A stretch of DNA of 8,882 bases from a virus (Duplodnaviria > Heunggongvirae > Uroviricota > Caudoviricetes): the IMG/VR virus record IMGVR_UViG_2534681772_000013; one strand, given 5' to 3'. The notes below the pieces were generated by a model that was not told the DNA's origin, did no database searches, and saw only the letters and a list, made by a program, of their open reading frames with translations. This document shows positions 1 through 8,882 of this stretch, one piece after another. Each line of letters begins with the position of its first letter. Position 1 is the first letter of the stretch. The position numbers were made by a program, and so were the translations under genes.

Positions 1-55
1 GGTATCCGTTCTGCTGAAGTGTCATGGCGTTGATTTTACGGTGACTCTTCGACAG

Positions 56-83
56 TGAAAAGAAAAAAGGCCGCAGAGCGGCC
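56..83 (-). terminator. Putative intrinsic terminator ending the minus-strand cassette (possibly bidirectional)
   Basis: Perfect 6-bp GC stem GGCCGC(69-74)/GCGGCC(78-83) with 3-nt loop; on the minus strand it is followed by a U-run (plus-strand A-run 56-68). It lies about 110 nt downstream of the stop of the 193..747 gene. Confidence 0.5.
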
Positions 84-192
84 ATAAACACAAACAAAAA
101 TCAACAAGTTAGATAATTATCAAAGACTTACAGACACACAAAAACACAGCCAACCACAACAAATAACAGAGATGTGGTCAATTTGTGGATCA

Positions 193-747
193 TCAGCCAA
201 CAAATTTAGCAACAAATACAGCAACCGCCGCCGTGAAAATGGTTGTGCATACTGGCACAATAATGCCACTCCAACGCCACTTCGTATTATCATCAACCTT
301 GTCAAACCGCCGATTCATCTCATCCATAATCTTGTCAAAGCGTTTATCCATCGCTTCGGTAAGCTCACCCTTCAGGCTGTTAATGTCTGATTTGAGCTGC
401 TCTTTCAGGTGAGCTGTATCAGATTTAAGCTCACCTTTCAGATTCGCAATATCGCATTTAAGATCACCTTTCAGATGAGCAATGTCTGCTTTGAGCTCAC
501 CTTTCACCTCACCAACATCGGCTTTGGTTGAGAGGTTTGTAGTGCGTTCAGCAAGCGTCGCAAGGTCGTTTCTTGTTAGCGATAAATCACTTTCGAGTCG
601 CTCAATTCGCCTTTCAAGTTTATCTGACATTCCACCTCCACTACTGCCGCCATCGCCGCCATGATAAAGCACATCACGCTCAGAATGCGACATACTACCT
701 GCTGAATTACCGAAAAGGTTTCTTGCTACATTACCCATTTTCACCAT
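193..747 (-). CDS. Coiled-coil protein with Gly/Ser-rich N-terminal linker, five hendecad repeats (LKGELKxDIAx) and a single C-terminal transmembrane anchor; function unknown
   Basis: 184-aa ORF from the track. Residues 81-135 form five 11-residue repeats; the C-terminus WRWSGIIVPVCTTIFTAAVAVFVAKFVG is a hydrophobic helix. An internal ATG at 736-738 has an AGGA 8 nt upstream and may be the true start. The start overlaps the stop of the upstream zinc-ribbon gene, suggesting translational coupling. Confidence 0.6.
   Translation of the reverse strand: MVKMGNVARNLFGNSAGSMSHSERDVLYHGGDGGSSGGGMSDKLERRIERLESDLSLTRNDLATLAERTTNLSTKADVGEVKGELKADIAHLKGDLKCDIANLKGELKSDTAHLKEQLKSDINSLKGELTEAMDKRFDKIMDEMNRRFDKVDDNTKWRWSGIIVPVCTTIFTAAVAVFVAKFVG
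343..507. repeat. Five tandem copies of an approximately 33-bp unit encoding the hendecad repeats of the coiled-coil protein
   Basis: Recurring motif visible in the DNA (gagctcacctttcag / gatttaagctcacctttcag / atttaagatcacctttcag) at about 33-bp spacing, matching protein repeats VKGELKADIAH-LKGDLKCDIAN-LKGELKSDTAH-LKEQLKSDINS-LKGELTEAMDK. Confidence 0.6.
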
Positions 748-1093
748 CCTGTGCTTTGTCTTTCTCCAACCACTTCAGCACCGCAGACGTACGGTAAAGG
801 CTCAGGTAACCACAATTCAGGCAATGCAGCGTGTAATAAGTTTTGCGCATATCAGGTATGCTCTTAACATCACCCAAAAAAGTATAAGATACATAATGCT
901 TTATGTTCTCTTTAATTAACTCACTCTGCTCCTCCAAGGGTAGATTGTTAAAATTTTCTGGTTTCTTATTTTTATCCCAGCAAAGATCCATACTTTCAGG
1001 CACAGATAATCGAGACGATCCACATGAAGGGCAGACACTGGAAACCCCCTTCTCAGACAAGAAACGGAAGAAGATTTCTGGCGTAATCTCCAT
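731..1093 (-). CDS. Small zinc-ribbon protein (CPSCG ... CLNCGY), AT-rich, function unknown
   Basis: The track gives 731..1126 (131 aa). The internal ATG at 1091-1093 (MEITPEIFF...) is preceded by a strong SD (TAAGGAGCGGCTG-ATG), whereas the ATG at 1126 has only a weak AAGAAG, so 1093 is preferred. Two CxxC pairs suggest a Zn ribbon. The region is markedly AT-rich compared with the integrase. Confidence 0.55.
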   Translation of the reverse strand: MEITPEIFFRFLSEKGVSSVCPSCGSSRLSVPESMDLCWDKNKKPENFNNLPLEEQSELIKENIKHYVSYTFLGDVKSIPDMRKTYYTLHCLNCGYLSLYRTSAVLKWLEKDKAQDGENG

Positions 1094-1232
1094 CAGCCGC
1101 TCCTTATGTTTATTGACACGACTCATCGACTTCTTATTGATTTCATCAGCTTCTTCTTTGCATTTATCTTCTATATATTTCGATAGTAAATAGTCATATA
1201 ACTCTTTTTTTGTAGGTTTTTTATTTCCATAG

Positions 1233-2210
1233 TTACATTCCTCCCAAGGGATTAAACCTCACCGCATCCTGCAGGTAATCCGGCGCAAGATGGGCATAAA
1301 TCATCGTTGTCTGAATCTTTGCGTGCCCCAGAATTTTCTGGAGCGTCAGAATATTGCCGCCGTTCATCATGAAATGACTGGCGAAGGTGTGGCGCAGCGC
1401 ATGAACAGCCTGGCCGTCAGGAACATCAGGTGCGACCGTTTTGATGACATCGCGAACCAATGGATAATCCAGCGTCGGAAACACCAGTTTCCCGCCCCGT
1501 TTTTTGATCTTTTCAAACAGGCTTTCAGAAATAGGAACGGTACGGTTTTTGCTGTTCTTCGTTTTTGAAAAAGTGATTCGACAATGAAGAACACGGCGCT
1601 GCTCCAGTGCCGCTACCTCGCCCCATCGCGCCCCGGTCGACAGAAGGATTTCGACAGCCAGCCGTTCATCGGGATTTTCAGCCAGTGCATCCAGCAACTG
1701 AACACATTCAGACTTACTCAGATATCCCATTTCGCGCTCGTTAACCTTCATTCCTTTAAGGCCTTGAACGGGGTTATCGTTAAGAAAATGGCCGGATGAG
1801 ATGAGTGCGGTAAACATCGCGCTTAACGCCCCAATCTCTCGATTAATGGTGCTGGGCTGTATCCCCTGCTCTATCCTGGACACACGCAGCTCGGTGAGCA
1901 TCGTTGTATTAAGTTTATGCACGCACGGGTCATCCATTGCCTCACTCAAGCGCAGCAATTTAAGGCGCGTGTTATGCCCTGACTTCATTAGCTGACCGTG
2001 GTATTTCCACCACAAGTCAATAAGCACTGACAGCGGACGGCGATCAATGGAGTTTCCTTTCCACTCATTGTTATGCTGTTGCGCCAGCACCCACCGCTCA
2101 TATAAAACTGCATCCGATTTCGTTTTAAATTTTTTACGAATGCGCTTGCCTTTGCGCCCCTCTGGACGCATGTCAAGAAGATAACCTCCCGGAATTGATT
2201 TTATGCTCAT
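1233..2210 (-). CDS. int: Tyrosine site-specific integrase, P2-family
   Basis: C-terminal catalytic signature HALRHTFASHFMMNGGNILTLQKILGHAKIQTTMIYAHLAPDY (R, H-x-x-R, Y) and an N-terminus MSIKSIPGGYLLDMRPEGRKGKRIRKKFKTKSDAV typical of P2-like integrases. The track ORF extends to 2360, but that extension overlaps the 3' end of the repressor gene in another frame; the ATG at 2208-2210 gives a 326-aa protein of the expected size. Confidence 0.9.
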   Translation of the reverse strand: MSIKSIPGGYLLDMRPEGRKGKRIRKKFKTKSDAVLYERWVLAQQHNNEWKGNSIDRRPLSVLIDLWWKYHGQLMKSGHNTRLKLLRLSEAMDDPCVHKLNTTMLTELRVSRIEQGIQPSTINREIGALSAMFTALISSGHFLNDNPVQGLKGMKVNEREMGYLSKSECVQLLDALAENPDERLAVEILLSTGARWGEVAALEQRRVLHCRITFSKTKNSKNRTVPISESLFEKIKKRGGKLVFPTLDYPLVRDVIKTVAPDVPDGQAVHALRHTFASHFMMNGGNILTLQKILGHAKIQTTMIYAHLAPDYLQDAVRFNPLGGM

Positions 2211-2259
2211 TCGTGAAACCCCAGCGTTACAAGACCACCATGCCCCCAGCGTTCCATGA

Positions 2260-2570
2260 TTAGCCGGGCTGTGTGCCAGTCTTGCGGGATTTTTGAGAAG
2301 ACGATGTGTTTTCTGGCCCATCAGGGGAGAGAGAGGGACTGATCTGCCCTGCAGCCTCATTTGTTTTTCCCGTCATAAGCCATATAGTGTATTTTTCGAA
2401 ATCCTTAGAATTAATTACGCGATCAACAACGCTTAAACCAACCTCTCTTTTACCGCTCTCATAATTCTTTATAGTTCCGAGATTTATCCCAGTAACATCA
2501 GCAAACTCAGCTTGAGTTAACCCTTCACTTTTCCGTATCTCTTTCAGTTTTTTTCGTACCCACTTGACAT
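2260..2570 (-). pseudogene. C: P2 C-type immunity repressor (XRE-family HTH), interrupted by a 1-nt frameshift in an A7 homopolymer
   Basis: ATG at 2568-2570 reads MSSGYEKN then stops. Shifting by 1 nt at the A7 run (plus T-run 2548-2554) gives MSSGYEKKLKEIRKSEGLTQAEFADVTGINLGTIKNYESGKREVGLSVVDRVINSKDFEKYTIWLMTGKTNEAAGQISPSLSPDGPENTSSSQKSRKTGTQPG (about 103 aa). This has a clear HTH and, from memory, a P2 C-like C-terminal tail. Position and orientation relative to int match P2. Confidence 0.55.
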
Positions 2571-2661
2571 GGTGGTCTCCAGACGACTAAATTAACCCTA
2601 AAAGTCGCCTAGAGACGACTTTTAGCAACAAATAACCACAGACTGAACAGGTTATCACATC
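2571..2661. promoter_or_regulatory. Divergent immunity switch region with operator-like repeats
   Basis: 90-bp intergenic region between divergent genes. Inverted repeat CTAAAAGTCG (2598-2607) / CGACTTTTAG (2616-2625) with an 8-bp spacer; direct repeat AGACGACT at 2581-2588 and 2613-2620. Confidence 0.5.
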
Positions 2662-3603: not shown

Positions 3604-3608
3604 TGGGC
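3604..3608. repeat. IS2 target-site duplication, left copy (TGGGC)
   Basis: The 5-bp TGGGC immediately outside the IS2 end at 3609 is identical to 4940-4944 outside the other end. Confidence 0.8.
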
Positions 3609-3619
3609 TGGATTTGCCC

Positions 3620-4525
3620 CTATATTTCCAGACATCTGTTATCACTTAACCCATTACAAGCCCGCTGCCGCAGATATTCCCGTGGCGAGCGATAACCCAG
3701 CGCACTATGCGGATGCCATTCGTTATAATGCTCGAACGCCTCTGCAAGGTTCTTTGCTGCCGTTAACCCGTCTGGTTTGGGCATGATACTGATGTAGTCA
3801 CGCTTTATCGTTTTCACGAAGCTCTCTGCTATTCCGTTACTCTCCGGACTCCGCACCGCCGTGTTCTTCGGTTCAAGTCCCAACATCCGGGCGAACTGGC
3901 GTGTTTCATTAGCCCGGTAGCATGAACCATTATCCGTCAGCCACTCCACTGGAGACGACGGAAGATCGTTGCCGAAGCGGCGTTCCACCGCTCCCAGCAT
4001 GACGTCCTGTACTGTTTCACTGTTGAAGCCGCCGGTAGTGACCGCCCAGTGCAGTGCCTCACGATCACAGCAGTCCAGCGCGAACGTGACACGCAGTCTC
4101 TCTCCGTTATCACAGCAGAACTCGAACCCGTCAGAGCACCATCGCTGATTGCTTTCTTTCACGGCCACTCTGCCTGTATGTGCCCGTTTCGATGGCGGTA
4201 CAGCAGGTTTTCGCTCAAGCAACAGCGCATTCTGGCGCATGATCCGGTAAACACGTTTGGCATTGATCGCAGGCATACCATCAAGTTCTGCCTGTCTGCG
4301 AAGCAGCGCCCATACCCGACGATAACCATACGTGGGCAGCTCTCCGATAACATGGTGTATACGGAGAAGCACATCCGTATCATCAGTGTGACGACTGCGG
4401 CGGCCATCCATCCAGTCATCGGTTCGTCTGAGAATGACGTGCAACTGCGCACGCGACACCCGGAGACAACGGCTGACTAAGCTTACTCCCCATCCCCGGG
4501 CAATAAGGGCGCGTGCGCTATCCAC
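3620..4525 (-). CDS. insD: IS2 transposase OrfB (DDE integrase domain)
   Basis: 301-aa translation matches IS2 InsD as recalled ([34 protein letters not shown] ... [14 protein letters not shown]). Confidence 0.93.
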
Positions 4526-4848
4526 TTTTTTGCCCGTCCATATTCAACGGCTTCTTTGAGGAGTTCATTTTCCATCGTTTTCTTGCCGAGCAGGCGCTGG
4601 AGTTCTTTAATCTGCTTCATGGCGGCAGCAAGTTCAGAGGCAGGAACAACCTGTTCTCCGGCGGCGACAGCAGTAAGACTTCCTTCCTGGTATTGCTTAC
4701 GCCAGAGAAATAACTGGCTGGCTGCTACACCATGTTGCCGGGCAACGAGGGAGACCGTCATCCCCGGTTCAAAGCTCTGCTGAACAATTGCGATCTTTTC
4801 CTGTGTGGTACGCCGTCTGCGTTTCTCCGGCCCTAAGACATCAATCAT
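4483..4848 (-). CDS. insC: IS2 transposase OrfA (HTH)
   Basis: Translation from the internal ATG at 4846-4848 is [56 protein letters not shown]... (121 aa). The track's longer 136-aa start lies in the IS2 terminal region and is not the native start. Confidence 0.9.
4506..4512 (-). other. IS2 programmed -1 ribosomal frameshift heptamer A-AAA-AAG (produces the InsCD fusion transposase)
   Basis: Minus-strand GCA-AAA-AAG-TGG in the insC frame, located in the insC/insD overlap, as is typical for the IS3 family. Confidence 0.7.
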
Positions 4849-4938
4849 CTGTTCTCCAATGACTAGTCTAAAAACTAGTATTAAGACTATCACTTATTTA
4901 AGTGATACTGGTTGTCTGGAGATTCAGGGGGGCAGTCT

Positions 4939-5181
4939 ATGGGCAAAGAATATAAAACTCTCATTAACAAAGCACTTGAGCGTTTTTATTTTCGCTTAAG
5001 TGCATCAGGCGCTCATGCTGAACGTGCGGCCCGTGACTCATTGACCAGAGCAATCCGAAGTCTGTATGACGTGGCTTTTTACGCTGATGATCTGGATGCA
5101 CTTAACGAACTTTCCGAGCTGATCTGTGCCGCAGAATGCGGGGAACATATTGAACCGTATAAGCTGGGAAATATCGCATGA
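4939..5181 (+). CDS. Hypothetical early protein whose start codon is split by the IS2 insertion
   Basis: ATG-GGC-AAA-GAA... encodes MGKEYKTLINKALERFYFRLSASGAHAERAARDSLTRAIRSLYDVAFYADDLDALNELSELICAAECGEHIEPYKLGNIA (80 aa). The ATG is rebuilt from the terminal A of IS2 plus the TG of the duplication; the original RBS and ATG (3591-3605) are now 1.3 kb upstream. Confidence 0.45.
   Translation: MGKEYKTLINKALERFYFRLSASGAHAERAARDSLTRAIRSLYDVAFYADDLDALNELSELICAAECGEHIEPYKLGNIA
4940..4944. repeat. IS2 target-site duplication, right copy (TGGGC)
   Basis: Identical to 3604-3608. Confidence 0.8.
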
Positions 5182-5291
5182 GTATATTTATCTCATGGCT
5201 TGTTCTGATTATTTCGGTGGTCTGCGCCATTGGGATTATGCGAATTATTAATTCAGTGAAAAAGATCGAGCGTTTTTTCTCTGATGAATAA
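5178..5291 (+). CDS. Small hydrophobic peptide (37 aa, one predicted TM helix)
   Basis: ATGA overlap with the stop of the upstream gene. Translation MSIFISWLVLIISVVCAIGIMRIINSVKKIERFFSDE. Below the ORF-track size cutoff, so not listed there. Confidence 0.35.
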   Translation: MSIFISWLVLIISVVCAIGIMRIINSVKKIERFFSDE

Positions 5292-5383
5292 CGATACAAA
5301 TAAAACATCAAATTAAATAAGAAAACGTGAAAACCATCCGTATTAATGGAGGTATTCGCACGCGTAAATAACGGAGATATAAA

Positions 5384-5800
5384 ATGAAAGCAAAAGAAGA
5401 AGGCATTATCGACACATTAAAAAAAATATCAGAAGCGGAAGATGAAATGGCTAAAGATGCCGTGAAGCGTAGCCAACATATGGCAGCACTTCACGCACTG
5501 ACCATTGCAAAAATCACCGCTGACGCAGCCAAAATTATTGAGGAACAGGGCAAAGAAATCGACACTCTTAAAACACAGTCAACAGTTGCAGCCATGAATC
5601 CGTCCAGCATTGGACGCCGCATTTACATTCTTGGTTCGGCAATAATGACGCAATACACCATTATTGCCGAACTGCACGGCAAATACCTGATAACGCCTTA
5701 CCACACAAAAGAGTCAGAGCTTCTGACAAATCTCCGCCTGATAGAACGCTCTCAAGCTGTATTCATTGATGACACGCAACGTGCCGTATTTAACGCATAG
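5384..5800 (+). CDS. Hypothetical protein, AT-richer than its neighbours (possible moron)
   Basis: 138-aa ORF with GGAG SD upstream of the ATG at 5384, preceded by about 90 bp of AT-rich non-coding sequence. No recognisable domain. Confidence 0.55.
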   Translation: MKAKEEGIIDTLKKISEAEDEMAKDAVKRSQHMAALHALTIAKITADAAKIIEEQGKEIDTLKTQSTVAAMNPSSIGRRIYILGSAIMTQYTIIAELHGKYLITPYHTKESELLTNLRLIERSQAVFIDDTQRAVFNA

Positions 5801-5823: not shown

Positions 5824-6027
5824 ATGGCAATTAAGCATTTTCCCGTCGTTCGCTTTACCTCCAGAGGGCGCGAATACGAGGTCGACGAACGCCTGATTAC
5901 CACTATCGACAAACATCGTTCGGAAAAGGATGCACACCACATCTACCTCACTGACGGCACTTACTTCTGCGCCACCAACGTGGCGCGAGTAAATCTTATC
6001 CGACAGGTACAGGAGCCACGCAGATGA
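5824..6027 (+). CDS. Hypothetical small early protein
   Basis: 67-aa ORF with AAGGGG SD; its stop overlaps the next start (ATGA at 6024-6027). Confidence 0.5.
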   Translation: MAIKHFPVVRFTSRGREYEVDERLITTIDKHRSEKDAHHIYLTDGTYFCATNVARVNLIRQVQEPRR

Positions 6028-6290: not shown

Positions 6291-6577
6291 GCACCATCAA
6301 CCACCAGAAGCTACGCGAACTGGCATTTGCCCTGCAACGAATGGCAACGCCTCAAAAATTACTGGCATTTCGCGCAATGCTCTCGCCGTCTGCTGTGCTG
6401 GCACTGCTGAATGAGCTGGAGCACGCCAGAACCACGGCTCCTGCCATTCGCCTGACGCTCCATCATGAAATCGCTGATTTCTGCGCGACGTTGGAGGCGC
6501 CGGGCGAACCGGAAACGCCGGAAGCAATACAGCAAGAGCTGCTGCAACGCATTGACAAGGTTTTTGATTTTTTCTGA
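6287..6577 (+). CDS. Hypothetical protein, possibly Ead/Ea22-like
   Basis: 96-aa ORF with an ATGA start overlap. The motif SPSAVLALLNELEHARTTA resembles the conserved region of Ead/Ea22-like phage proteins as I recall it (weak). Confidence 0.5.
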   Translation: MSTINHQKLRELAFALQRMATPQKLLAFRAMLSPSAVLALLNELEHARTTAPAIRLTLHHEIADFCATLEAPGEPETPEAIQQELLQRIDKVFDFF

Positions 6578-6708
6578 ACCAGTAAGAAACCAGAACATGC
6601 ACACACAAAAAAAACCGCTTGCCATGCCGCAATCAGTCAGGTTACATTTCCGCTGCACCTCATAAAACGGGTGCCGGGATTTCCACCCCGCTGACAACTA
6701 CAGCGCAC

Positions 6709-6729
6709 AACCGCGCCAGCGGTTTTTTT
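6709..6729 (+). terminator. Putative intrinsic terminator within the non-coding gap
   Basis: AACCGC-GCCA-GCGGTT stem-loop followed by a T7 run (6723-6729). Confidence 0.45.
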
Positions 6730-6908
6730 GTGCGTACTGTATCGCCACGTCTTTTTCGCACACGAATTATGGTGGGGCGTACGGGGCCGACTTCGGTCGG
6801 GCCGGGTTCTGTAGTTGCCGGTTGTGGAAACCCTGTACGTCTCACCACCCCGAGTTTTCCACCTCTGGATGGTGAGTTTTCAAAACTTGCAACTACAGAG
6901 GCCACACC

Positions 6909-7139
6909 ATGGCAAACCGCAAACAGCACCGCGCTATCGCGGAGCGTCGTCACATCCAGACTGAAATCAACCGCAGACTTTTCCGCGCATCACGCGTCGC
7001 GCAAATCATGCACATCAATATGCTGCATGAGCGCAGCCACGCACTATCAAACATCTATTCCGCCGCTGTTTTCAGCTATCTGGCGGATGATCTGCACGAG
7101 CTTCAACAGCTCATCCAGCAGCAAAACAAACTCCATTAA
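6909..7139 (+). CDS. Hypothetical small basic protein
   Basis: 76-aa ORF with AGAGG SD 8 nt upstream. Its composition is sensible, unlike the overlapping 198-aa track ORF. Confidence 0.5.
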   Translation: MANRKQHRAIAERRHIQTEINRRLFRASRVAQIMHINMLHERSHALSNIYSAAVFSYLADDLHELQQLIQQQNKLH

Positions 7140-7583: not shown

Positions 7584-8882
7584 ATGACGGCAGAGTACAT
7601 CAGGGACTGGCAACAACCGCGCCACGCAGTGGGGCGTGAAGGAACGGGGATCCCCGCTCCTGAATCCGCGCTTTCCTCCTGGCTGGATGCCTACCGGGCA
7701 GAGAACGAGCGCCGCCAGGAAATGGCTGATGCGGCGTTCTCCGCCACGCCGCTGGGCAACCTGATTAATAAAAGCCTGGACGCACAGGAAAAACAGGACA
7801 AAACCATCACACTGGCAGGAGACGCCAGAAAACAGGCACGCGGCGCGGTGGATGAAGCCATGGCCTCGCTGCGCCTGCTGCCGTCCTATCTGCGCGATCC
7901 GCTTATTCGCCACCTCTCCTTCCTTCGCAAAAAACAGGAAGCCGATCGCCGGAAAGGCAAAAAGAGCTGGCAGGCGGAACGCTATGCACGCGGAACCCTG
8001 CGCAAAATATTCGAACGTCTGGATCGCACTGACGGACGCTGGCTGACACCGGGTTATCGCTCCCTTGCCGGACGCGAACGCCTGGACGATTTGCTTTACC
8101 TGCCGCAGCTCAACAAACACCAGATACAGACGCTGGCCACCATGACGGCAGCGATGTTCAGCAGCACCTTCGAAAAACTCTGCGATGGCTTTGGCGCGAC
8201 TGATGGCGAACTGACCATGGATGTATCGCTGAAGGCGTATCAGATGCTGGCCCGCATGGCGTTACACCTGCACGCTATGCCTCCACATTATGACGCACTG
8301 ACAACAGATAAAGACCGGAGGAACGAACCGGACACAGAGCTGCTGCCGGGCGCAATCCTTCGCCTGACCTGTGCGGAATGGTGGAAACGCAAACTGTGGC
8401 TGTTACGTTGCGAGTGGAGAGAAGAACAACTCCGCGCCGCCTGTCTGGTTTCCAGAAAAACATCGCCCTATCTGAGCCAGGACGCGTTAAGCGAGTTTCG
8501 CGCACAGCGCGAGAAAACACGCGATTTCCTGAAAAGTTTCATGCTGGAAAACGAAGACGGGTTCACGATTGATCTCGAGACAGTGTATTACGCGGGAGTA
8601 AGTAACCCGGTTCACCGTAAGGCAGAAATGATGGCCACCATGAAGGGACTGGAACTTCTGGCCGAAGCCCGTGGCGACAGAGCGGTGTTTCTGACTGTCA
8701 CCTGCCCGTCAAAATACCACGCAACAACAGAGAACGGTCATCCGAATCCCAAATGGAACGGGGCCACCATGCGCGACTCCAGCGATTACCTGGTTAACAC
8801 GTTTTTTTGCGGCGGTCCGCAAGAAACTGAACCGCGACGGCCTGCGCTGGTATGGCATCCGCACGGTGGAGCCTCACCATGA
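7584..8882 (+). CDS. A: P2 gpA-family rolling-circle replication initiator, frameshifted at a T7 run and truncated by the window end
   Basis: The 432-aa frame-0 translation ends ...NTFFCGGPQETEPRRPALVWHPHGGASP. After the T-run 8811-8817 the +1 frame reads AAVRKKLNRDGLRWYGIRTVEPHH, which matches the conserved gpA-family motif as I recall it, and stays open to the window end. A T6 run would give one continuous ORF. Confidence 0.8.
   Translation: MTAEYIRDWQQPRHAVGREGTGIPAPESALSSWLDAYRAENERRQEMADAAFSATPLGNLINKSLDAQEKQDKTITLAGDARKQARGAVDEAMASLRLLPSYLRDPLIRHLSFLRKKQEADRRKGKKSWQAERYARGTLRKIFERLDRTDGRWLTPGYRSLAGRERLDDLLYLPQLNKHQIQTLATMTAAMFSSTFEKLCDGFGATDGELTMDVSLKAYQMLARMALHLHAMPPHYDALTTDKDRRNEPDTELLPGAILRLTCAEWWKRKLWLLRCEWREEQLRAACLVSRKTSPYLSQDALSEFRAQREKTRDFLKSFMLENEDGFTIDLETVYYAGVSNPVHRKAEMMATMKGLELLAEARGDRAVFLTVTCPSKYHATTENGHPNPKWNGATMRDSSDYLVNTFFCGGPQETEPRRPALVWHPHGGASP

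Follow-up and report, generated by a model that had tools for sequence, protein, structure and literature searches.

The question raised by this locus is whether a 37-codon open reading frame (ORF) lying immediately behind a gene for a DUF4754 protein, in an 8,882-nt stretch of viral DNA (IMG/VR record IMGVR_UViG_2534681772_000013, analysed over its full length and referred to here as the window), is a genuine gene, and what its product may do in the host cell. The window corresponds to the left arm of an Escherichia coli prophage of the P88 type (genus Xuanwuvirus, Peduoviridae, P2-like). The ORF occupies positions 5178..5291 on the plus strand (37 codons and a TAA stop, with the ATG at 5178 and the TAA at 5289-5291), exactly where an earlier sequence-only reading had placed it, and specifies a putative single-pass inner-membrane peptide of 37 amino acids, MSIFISWLVLIISVVCAIGIMRIINSVKKIERFFSDE, with 89% identity to gp07 of phage P88. 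Our comparisons strongly support the view that the ORF at 5178..5291 is a true protein-coding gene of such P88-type prophages, and it is very probable that the gene is translated and its product inserted into the membrane.

The comparative analysis was carried out with 119 related loci from phage records, IMG/VR contigs and genome contigs, which were anchored on the neighbouring DUF4754 gene and not on the small ORF itself; the scan of genome contigs, in which DUF4754 was the query, yielded only two of them. The ATGA, formed by the ATG of the small ORF and the overlapping TGA of the DUF4754 gene, was retained in 118 of the 119 loci, and the frame was 37 amino acids long in 82 and 41 amino acids long in 27 of them (109 together). 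Frame-disrupting changes in relatives, which the sequence-only reading had named as evidence that would speak against its proposal, were rare: a premature stop was present in one locus, and the frame was lost only in phage 503458, in which the DUF4754 gene is broken too. A 30-amino-acid version of the peptide was found in phage Chuche, and a 45-amino-acid frame in eight loci, caused by T5 replacing T6 at 5273-5278. This T6 run (5273..5278) forms codons 32-34, and its shortening swaps the last four residues for a 12-residue tail; T5 was seen on at least three different sequence backgrounds and also in several database clusters, and reflects either recurrent real homopolymer slippage or sequencing error.

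The amino acid sequence itself appears to be constrained. Among 33 distinct 37-codon haplotypes, the ratio of nonsynonymous to synonymous differences per site (pN/pS) was 0.26 in the frame of the ORF and 1.0-1.5 in the other two frames. When the analysis was limited to four phylogenetically independent pairs, the summed pN/pS was 0.35 (binomial P = 1.6e-5, in the ORF frame only), and the other two frames gave 0.84 and 2.03. Pairwise ratios of nonsynonymous to synonymous substitution rates (dN/dS) were between 0.07 and 0.38 where dS was unsaturated. Between subfamilies, 43-70% of the peptide residues were identical despite pS values of 0.43-0.81, with many pairs saturated, and at long range the peptide (49-65% identical) was better conserved than DUF4754 (26-41%). 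The retention of the ATGA and the frame, the frame-specific pN/pS and the existence of distant homologues therefore indicate that the gene is real and that its amino acid sequence is under purifying selection. When column conservation was determined over 91 distinct full-length peptides, M1, F4, S6, W7, L10, I11, A17, G19, I20, I23, I24, K28, I30, E31 and F34 were found to be near-invariant, and positions 5, 8, 9, 15, 16, 25-27, 29, 32, 33 and 35-37 were variable. One face of the transmembrane (TM) helix is lined by the small or special residues S6, S/A13, A17 and G19, and the tail carries the motif K-x-I-E-x-x-F(T/S)(G/D)(E/D), to which the 41-amino-acid forms add a basic K-R/H-R/H-K end. An antisense ORF of 69 amino acids at 5102..5311 was also considered and was rejected as the real gene, because its frame is not kept open in relatives.

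The product has the features of a membrane peptide. Codons 3-24 (5184..5249, plus strand; IFISWLVLIISVVCAIGIMRII) were assigned to the TM segment on the basis of hydrophobicity, column conservation and the helix modelled by AlphaFold2, and codons 25-37 (5250..5288, plus strand; NSVKKIERFFSDE) to a charged amphipathic tail, which is predicted to be cytoplasmic from its hydrophobic moment and the K/R residues that follow the helix. The Kyte-Doolittle maximum (19-residue mean) was 2.81 over residues 3-21, and the hydrophobicity of the peptide exceeded that of all other ATG-initiated ORFs in the window (65 of at least 30 amino acids, the peptide included). The tail, RIINSVKKIERFFSDE, contains four K/R and three D/E residues and has a hydrophobic moment of 0.72-0.87. 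AlphaFold2, supplied with an alignment of 56 family members, predicted a single continuous helix from residue 2 to residue 35 with a mean predicted local distance difference test score (pLDDT) of 88.5. These results agree with the one TM helix and charged tail that had been read from the sequence, and they strongly support a transmembrane location for residues ~3-24 followed by an amphipathic, mostly basic extension at residues 25-35. The positive-inside rule is an established basis for topology prediction, and since all of the positive charge lies C-terminal to the helix, an N-out/C-in orientation is predicted, which would place the two N-terminal residues on the periplasmic side and the K/R-rich tail on the cytoplasmic side of the membrane.

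The gene had been described as unannotated in the sequence-only reading, which proved not to be the case. An identical coding sequence is present in E. coli TW10590, where the DNA is 100% identical, and is listed in RefSeq as WP_000021666.1 ("hypothetical protein"); gp07 of phage P88 ("membrane protein", YP_009113050.1) is likewise 37 amino acids long with the same 4-bp overlap with DUF4754, and phage vB_EcoM-569R5 labels its copy "putative membrane protein". The window peptide is homologous over its full length to this P88 gp07/WP_000021666 family and is encoded at the same ATGA position after DUF4754 in a P2-like early operon; nothing structural separates it from P88 gp07 and WP_000021666.1, which are known from annotation entries only. 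The family is thus already catalogued but unstudied. The further statement that such genes are routinely missed by gene callers was borne out only in part: among the 30 genome matches listed, 29 carry a "hypothetical protein" annotation beside DUF4754 (the remaining one matches only partially, over 40 nt) and PGAP annotates the gene in the E. coli rows inspected, but intact copies were left unannotated in two of eight phage records, those of Citrobacter phage Shae_phiSM and phage 520873.

With regard to distribution, copies in six phages were 84-92% identical to the window peptide, and a 141-nt probe matched 1389 of 5426 complete E. coli genomes, about a quarter, including O157:H7 and other pathogenic lineages; plasmid carriage was rare (8 records). 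When 1.84 billion cluster representatives were scanned exhaustively with HMMER, only eight clusters were returned, which include 41-amino-acid forms at 51-62% identity, and a profile search, the first sequence of which was 41 amino acids long, recovered 149 proteins at E <= 0.01, nearly all of them named Escherichia. No family match for the peptide was found in Pfam, PHROGs, NCBIfam or PADLOC, apart from a sub-threshold match to DUF2975 in Pfam/NCBIfam at 13 bits vs a cut-off of 27, and a sequence search of the PDB gave nothing meaningful and no solved relative. A cassette 97-98% identical to that of E. coli was also found on a 226-kb contig labelled "Vagococcus sp. WN89Y" (NZ_JBQPOM010000071.1); this Firmicute label is probably due to contamination or a mislabelled assembly.

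The peptide gene has a constant partner. The DUF4754 gene (4939..5181, plus strand; PF15946, E = 2.8e-54; phrog_2549) has its true start at ATG 4939 and its stop, TGA, at 5179-5181, and encodes an acidic, all-helical protein of 80 amino acids, for which AlphaFold2 gave a model with a pLDDT of 90.8 and helices at residues 4-48 and 52-66. No match to this model was found in the PDB at E <= 0.001. The net charge of DUF4754 ranges from -3 to -6 and that of its C-terminal half from -5 to -8, whereas the tail of the peptide carries +1 to +3. The ATGA start/stop overlap (5178..5181, plus strand), which is the proposed point of termination-reinitiation and had been noticed in the sequence-only reading, persists even where DUF4754 is only 26-40% identical. 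Contigs that encode three of the 41-amino-acid forms have an 80-amino-acid DUF4754, the ATGA and the peptide in the same arrangement, in a P2-like early operon that has gpA at its end, and the genes flanking the cassette differ between these contigs. It is therefore strongly supported that DUF4754 and the peptide form a fixed two-gene cassette. In one locus (L093, GCA_900536625.1; segments 1..1795 and 3762..4126), a DUF4754 of the window type is joined to a 41-amino-acid peptide of the type found in locus L092, and this mixed pair indicates recombination at or near the gene boundary. In the same P2-like early region, a Mu-type transposase gene (HTH_Tnp_Mu_1, Mu-transpos_C) replaces the usual integrase, C and cox genes. 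Natural DUF4754-peptide fusions were rejected, since the database entries of 103-128 amino acids are frameshifted mis-assemblies that read other frames.

The sequence-only reading had proposed that the peptide is translationally coupled to the upstream gene, and this remains plausible. Termination-reinitiation is an established mechanism of coupling, the ATGA is conserved, and every lineage has a purine-rich element resembling a Shine-Dalgarno (SD) sequence 3-9 nt upstream of the ATG (-4.2 to -8.5 kcal/mol) despite sequence divergence. The SD-like GGGA of the window (5166..5169, plus strand) lies 8 nt before the ATG within the last codons of DUF4754 and is weak; at -4.6 kcal/mol it ranks second-weakest of 17 variants. 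In each of the eight lineages folded, the accessibility of the region from -14 to +6 was below the mean for 20-nt stretches of that fold. Furthermore, the CATGAG at the start (start region 5177..5198, plus strand) is complementary to a CTCATG that runs from the third position of codon 5 through the Ser6 codon to the second position of the Trp7 codon. CAUGA can pair with UCAUG, or with UCGUG by a G.U pair, in all variants, and the Ser6 codon is only TCA or TCG in the 17 variants that keep the ATG, both of which pair with the U of the AUG. A hairpin that sequesters the start and enforces coupling may thus exist; it is a lead only, because the stem is short and its conservation is inseparable from that of S6-W7 at the protein level.

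A second RNA structure follows the gene. A hairpin with a 5-bp stem and a tetraloop (TCCGT-ATTA-ATGGA followed by GG; 5337..5350, plus strand) begins 46 nt past the stop of the small ORF, is preceded by an A-rich stretch, and occurs in the window as a single copy with no Rfam family. Related loci keep it 40-50 nt after the small ORF, and it was found in all but 15 of them, with several different downstream genes; 99% of the cells of the stem are paired, with one covarying pair (CG<->UA) and two G.U variants. It could be a site of RNA processing, RNA stability or protein binding. The 15 exceptions, locus records of the 41-amino-acid subfamily that include several duplicates, have no such hairpin within ~130 nt and contain a second small hydrophobic ORF instead. 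In locus L104, this ORF (1578..1673, plus strand) encodes 31 amino acids, MKNVKAILTIATVWVIFQVSALIWLALKIWE, and starts 12 nt after the peptide gene; it is also present in L116, L118 and L119.

The window is 99.8-99.9% identical to a prophage located beside btuC in TW10590, in which the gene order is integrase, C-type repressor, Cox-like DNA-binding protein, DUF4761, a 95-amino-acid protein, DUF4754 and the 37-amino-acid protein, followed by a number of small genes and the replication endonuclease gpA. With P2-type C repressor and Cox-like genes upstream and gpA downstream, the assignment of a small membrane-peptide gene to a phage early region is supported, and there is strong support for placing the cassette in the long early operon (the Pe operon), with cox on one side and gene A on the other. 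The best candidate for Pe, TTGACA-18-TAAATT (2564..2593, plus strand), precedes the Cox-like gene and was identified with 10 of 12 matches by a promoter scan of an intact twin locus lacking insertion sequence IS2 (L001). The scan of the intact locus showed no promoter-like site between this candidate and the start of the cassette, where the gap to the preceding gene is only 11 bp, and no terminator-like site after the peptide gene; the sole other promoter-like site on the plus strand was a weak one (9 of 12 matches) inside the DUF4754 coding sequence. Because no promoter-like site separates Pe from the cassette, the peptide gene is expected to be silent unless the early operon is active.

In the window itself, this arrangement is interrupted by a 1331-bp IS2 element (3609..4939, minus strand), which was recognized by its junctions, length and inverted repeats, a match to an annotated IS2 (H41) and two minus-strand transposase ORFs, and which the twin prophage of TW10590 lacks. 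The target duplication, TGGGC, is found at 3604-3608 and 4940-4944. The element sits inside the start codon of DUF4754, and its terminal A together with TGGGC regenerates the ATG. As a result, all early genes from DUF4754 to gpA are separated from the early promoter by an additional 1.3 kb and follow an insertion sequence of opposite orientation, and no outward promoter-like site was found at the end of IS2 in a scan of 4850-5500.

These results can be combined into a proposed mode of action. Ribosomes that terminate at the UGA of DUF4754 would restart at the overlapping AUG, for which the weak upstream SD-like element would be of help, and base-pairing of the AUG with the Ser6-Trp7 codons in a small hairpin may contribute to reinitiation. 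The peptide would thus be produced together with DUF4754 and only with the early operon on, that is, after infection or derepression. The concentration of conserved residues on one face of the helix (S6, W7, L10, S/A13, A17, G19, I23/I24), together with the K-x-I-E-x-x-F motif, leads us to infer specific helix-helix contacts, which might represent self-association or the binding of an inner-membrane protein of the host, while the acidic DUF4754 could interact with the tail. The peptide would then alter a host membrane process early in lytic growth and not perforate the membrane non-specifically. Action through a specific partner, which is suggested by the pattern of sequence conservation, is possible rather than probable. 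The explanation as a whole, an early-lytic N-out/C-in peptide coupled to DUF4754, is the best one overall, and if its firmer and weaker parts are blended we would give it an even chance of being correct. In an extension of this proposal that we regard as unlikely, DUF4754, the TM peptide and the downstream hairpin would make up a self-contained, recombining cassette for a two-component membrane effector, essentially confined to P88-type phages of Escherichia, in which DUF4754 would dock on the K-x-I-E-x-x-F tail and either restrain the peptide or be anchored through it at the inner membrane. If true, such a module for host takeover, or for a toxin and its brake, would be new and without described relatives.

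Several observations weigh against the explanation of an early-lytic peptide coupled to DUF4754. In this strain, IS2 cuts the cassette off from Pe and from its native upstream sequence, so that the cassette may be silent here. The SD-like element in the window is weak on its own, since about one in five random 22-mers drawn from the window also reaches -4 kcal/mol. Overlaps of the ATGA type are common in the operon (for example, at 6024 and 6287), and the overlap alone is therefore no proof of a functional link. The hybrid pair in L093 indicates that DUF4754 and the peptide can recombine without strict co-adaptation. The tail variants of 45 and 30 amino acids mean that either the last residues are dispensable or some copies are decaying. 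The DUF4754 model had no informative structural relative, only generic helical bundles (best E = 1.7), and our literature search on DUF4754, P88/Xuanwuvirus, the peptide and P2-like small membrane proteins found no paper on the gene.

The sequence-only reading had pointed out that small membrane peptides of phage early regions are often toxins, holin-like modulators or exclusion factors. Alternatively to the above, the peptide might thus be a membrane-damaging toxin, similar to holins or type I toxins, which oligomerises and depolarises or permeabilises the inner membrane for host shut-off or lysis timing, and DUF4754, a cytoplasmic protein expressed with it, might act as its brake, in keeping with the antitoxin-first or antiholin logic of GhoS/GhoT and LydB/LydA. 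The size of the peptide, its single TM helix and its charged C-terminal tail are indeed like those of the Hok, Ldr and TisB class and of one-TM holins, an acidic soluble protein encoded first and joined by a 4-bp overlap is a typical toxin-antitoxin layout, and the second small hydrophobic ORF directly behind the gene in some relatives, such as that at 1578..1673 of L104, would fit as well. However, no toxin or holin family was matched in Pfam, PHROGs, NCBIfam or PADLOC, and no Rfam match to an antisense RNA was obtained in 4900-5450, even at E <= 1. The 11-bp gap and the absence of a promoter-like site between Pe and the start of the cassette leave no sign of the promoter of its own, usually autoregulated, that a toxin-antitoxin pair would have, and DUF4754 showed no match in the PDB, PADLOC or NCBIfam that would indicate an antitoxin or DNA-binding fold. 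A holin would be expected in a late lysis cassette, whereas this gene lies between cox and A; P88 has its own lysis cassette in the late region, ~15 kb from the peptide gene, with gp30 (holin/anti-holin), gp31 (endolysin) and gp32 (DUF2570), and a separate hok/gef gene. Moreover, the conserved small residues and the tail motif fit specific binding better than bulk membrane damage, and phage replication would presumably suffer if a depolarising peptide were produced from the earliest transcript. Membrane damage is therefore rather unlikely to be the function of the peptide. A role in superinfection exclusion, in which the peptide would act from the inner membrane to block DNA entry or another step of a competitor phage, is more doubtful still. 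Small phage proteins of the inner membrane are a known class of exclusion factors, and as many as 28 peptide variants were found behind one identical DUF4754 protein in prophages that otherwise hardly differ, which could reflect an arms race. This variability is also synonymous (pS of 0.24 for the peptide vs 0.07 for DUF4754, window compared with locus L003) and points to a mosaic boundary, and diversifying selection was rejected as its cause in view of the high synonymous divergence and the pN/pS of 0.35. An exclusion factor would be expected to be expressed from the prophage, either from its own promoter or as a moron outside the repressed operons; this gene lies inside the Pe operon, where the C repressor keeps it off in the lysogen, and has no promoter-like site before the cassette. 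The conversion genes of the P2 family (old, tin and fun), in contrast, are separately expressed morons located elsewhere, and no homology to exclusion or defence proteins was found in PADLOC, PHROGs or Pfam.

Two further alternatives dispense with a function of the peptide altogether. It is conceivable that translation alone matters, the ORF serving to keep ribosomes on the mRNA as far as the hairpin and the next gene, so as to prevent Rho-dependent polarity or to set mRNA decay, and with the peptide as a by-product. The conserved A-rich stretch and hairpin mostly travel with the ORF whatever gene is downstream, and constraint at the RNA level could apply to the first 14 nt and to the Ser6-Trp7 codons. 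Nevertheless, this is very improbable, because purifying selection on amino acids extends along the whole frame and goes beyond mere openness, because hydrophobicity, G19 and K-x-I-E-x-x-F are kept in subfamilies at ~50% identity, and because a spacer ORF needs no perfect TM helix. That the ORF arose by chance in AT-rich, intergenic-like DNA and was propagated by gene callers might be thought from its mere 37 codons, the lack of a family assignment and the weak SD-like element in the window. Such an origin is hardly credible and is effectively refuted by the comparative data, namely the ATGA in 118 of 119 loci, the pN/pS of 0.35 (P = 1.6e-5) in this frame only, the homologues of ~50% identity with saturated synonymous sites and a hydrophobicity that is the most extreme among the ORFs of the window.

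Comparison with known systems helps to define the type of peptide that may be involved. Like Hok, Ldr, TisB and Ibs, it is a small hydrophobic single-helix peptide in the size range of 19-50 amino acids, so that it shares with type I toxins, ShoB included, the property of being a small hydrophobic membrane peptide. Translation of hok is coupled to an overlapping upstream frame, mok; the peptide gene is likewise putatively coupled to an upstream frame, and its start can sit in a small hairpin. It differs from type I toxin genes in that neither an antisense RNA nor a promoter of its own was found, a long folded leader is lacking, and the gene is placed inside a phage operon behind a genuine gene for an 80-amino-acid protein. 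An undescribed antisense RNA at the locus is possible. An antisense promoter-like site at 5262->5235 was rejected as evidence for an antitoxin, since such sites occur at chance level (3 vs 1.9 +/- 1.6) and the hexamers are absent in locus L096. P88 does encode a hok/gef-family "MokW-like host killing" gene, gp52, near its right end (28929..29069 of locus L120). With GhoS/GhoT and LydB/LydA the cassette shares the order of a two-gene unit in which the gene for a soluble protein precedes that for a small membrane protein. GhoT has two TM helices, GhoS has an RNase fold, and LydA and LydB are late lysis genes; in contrast, DUF4754 is helical with no fold match, the cassette is early and toxicity is only putative. 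Holins have one or more TM domains and a tail with charged residues at the C-terminus, and both are predicted for the peptide.

A resemblance is also seen to small single-TM modulators of E. coli membrane proteins, of the MgrB, AcrZ, CydX and SgrT class, which are likewise shorter than 50 amino acids, have one TM helix with an orientation set by charge and carry conserved small residues on one face of the helix, a pattern suggestive of binding to a larger membrane protein; CydX is 37 amino acids long and is encoded by the last gene of its operon. The difference is that the peptide has no sequence relationship to this class, is encoded by a phage and has a partner that is only presumed. T4 Imm and HK97 gp15 are also small phage-encoded inner-membrane proteins, and both act against superinfecting phage, HK97 gp15 being expressed from the prophage. 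Unlike these, the peptide is encoded in a repressed early operon, shows no homology to them and gave no PADLOC match. On the comparative evidence, what was a short hypothetical ORF can be regarded as a membrane-peptide gene that is under selection, has defined conserved residues and is always paired with DUF4754. It would add one case to the poorly explored small membrane proteins of phages, and no accepted idea is changed by it alone.

Some other features of the window were noted. Compared with the TW10590 prophage, the window has five insertions or deletions, all of them single-base length changes (at 1221, 2548, 6574, 6614 and 8802) in runs of T6-T8 or A7-A8. One of them truncates the frame of the C-type repressor (~2259-2570, minus strand) after eight codons. 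This pattern resembles homopolymer sequencing error, and therefore the apparent frameshifts in the repressor, in the ORF ending at 6577 and in gpA near 8802 should not be taken as biology without the reads. Further downstream in the window, Rfam models identified an IsrK Hfq-binding small RNA (6655..6729, plus strand; 63.6 bits, E = 3.9e-12) and, in tandem with it, a C4 antisense RNA (6765..6852, plus strand; 80.5 bits, E = 4.8e-15). The pair lies just upstream of a 76-amino-acid ORF (6909..7139), counterparts of which are annotated as "derepression protein" (PF25738), and it looks like an antirepressor control unit of the P1 c4/ant or Gifsy IsrK type in a P2-like early region.

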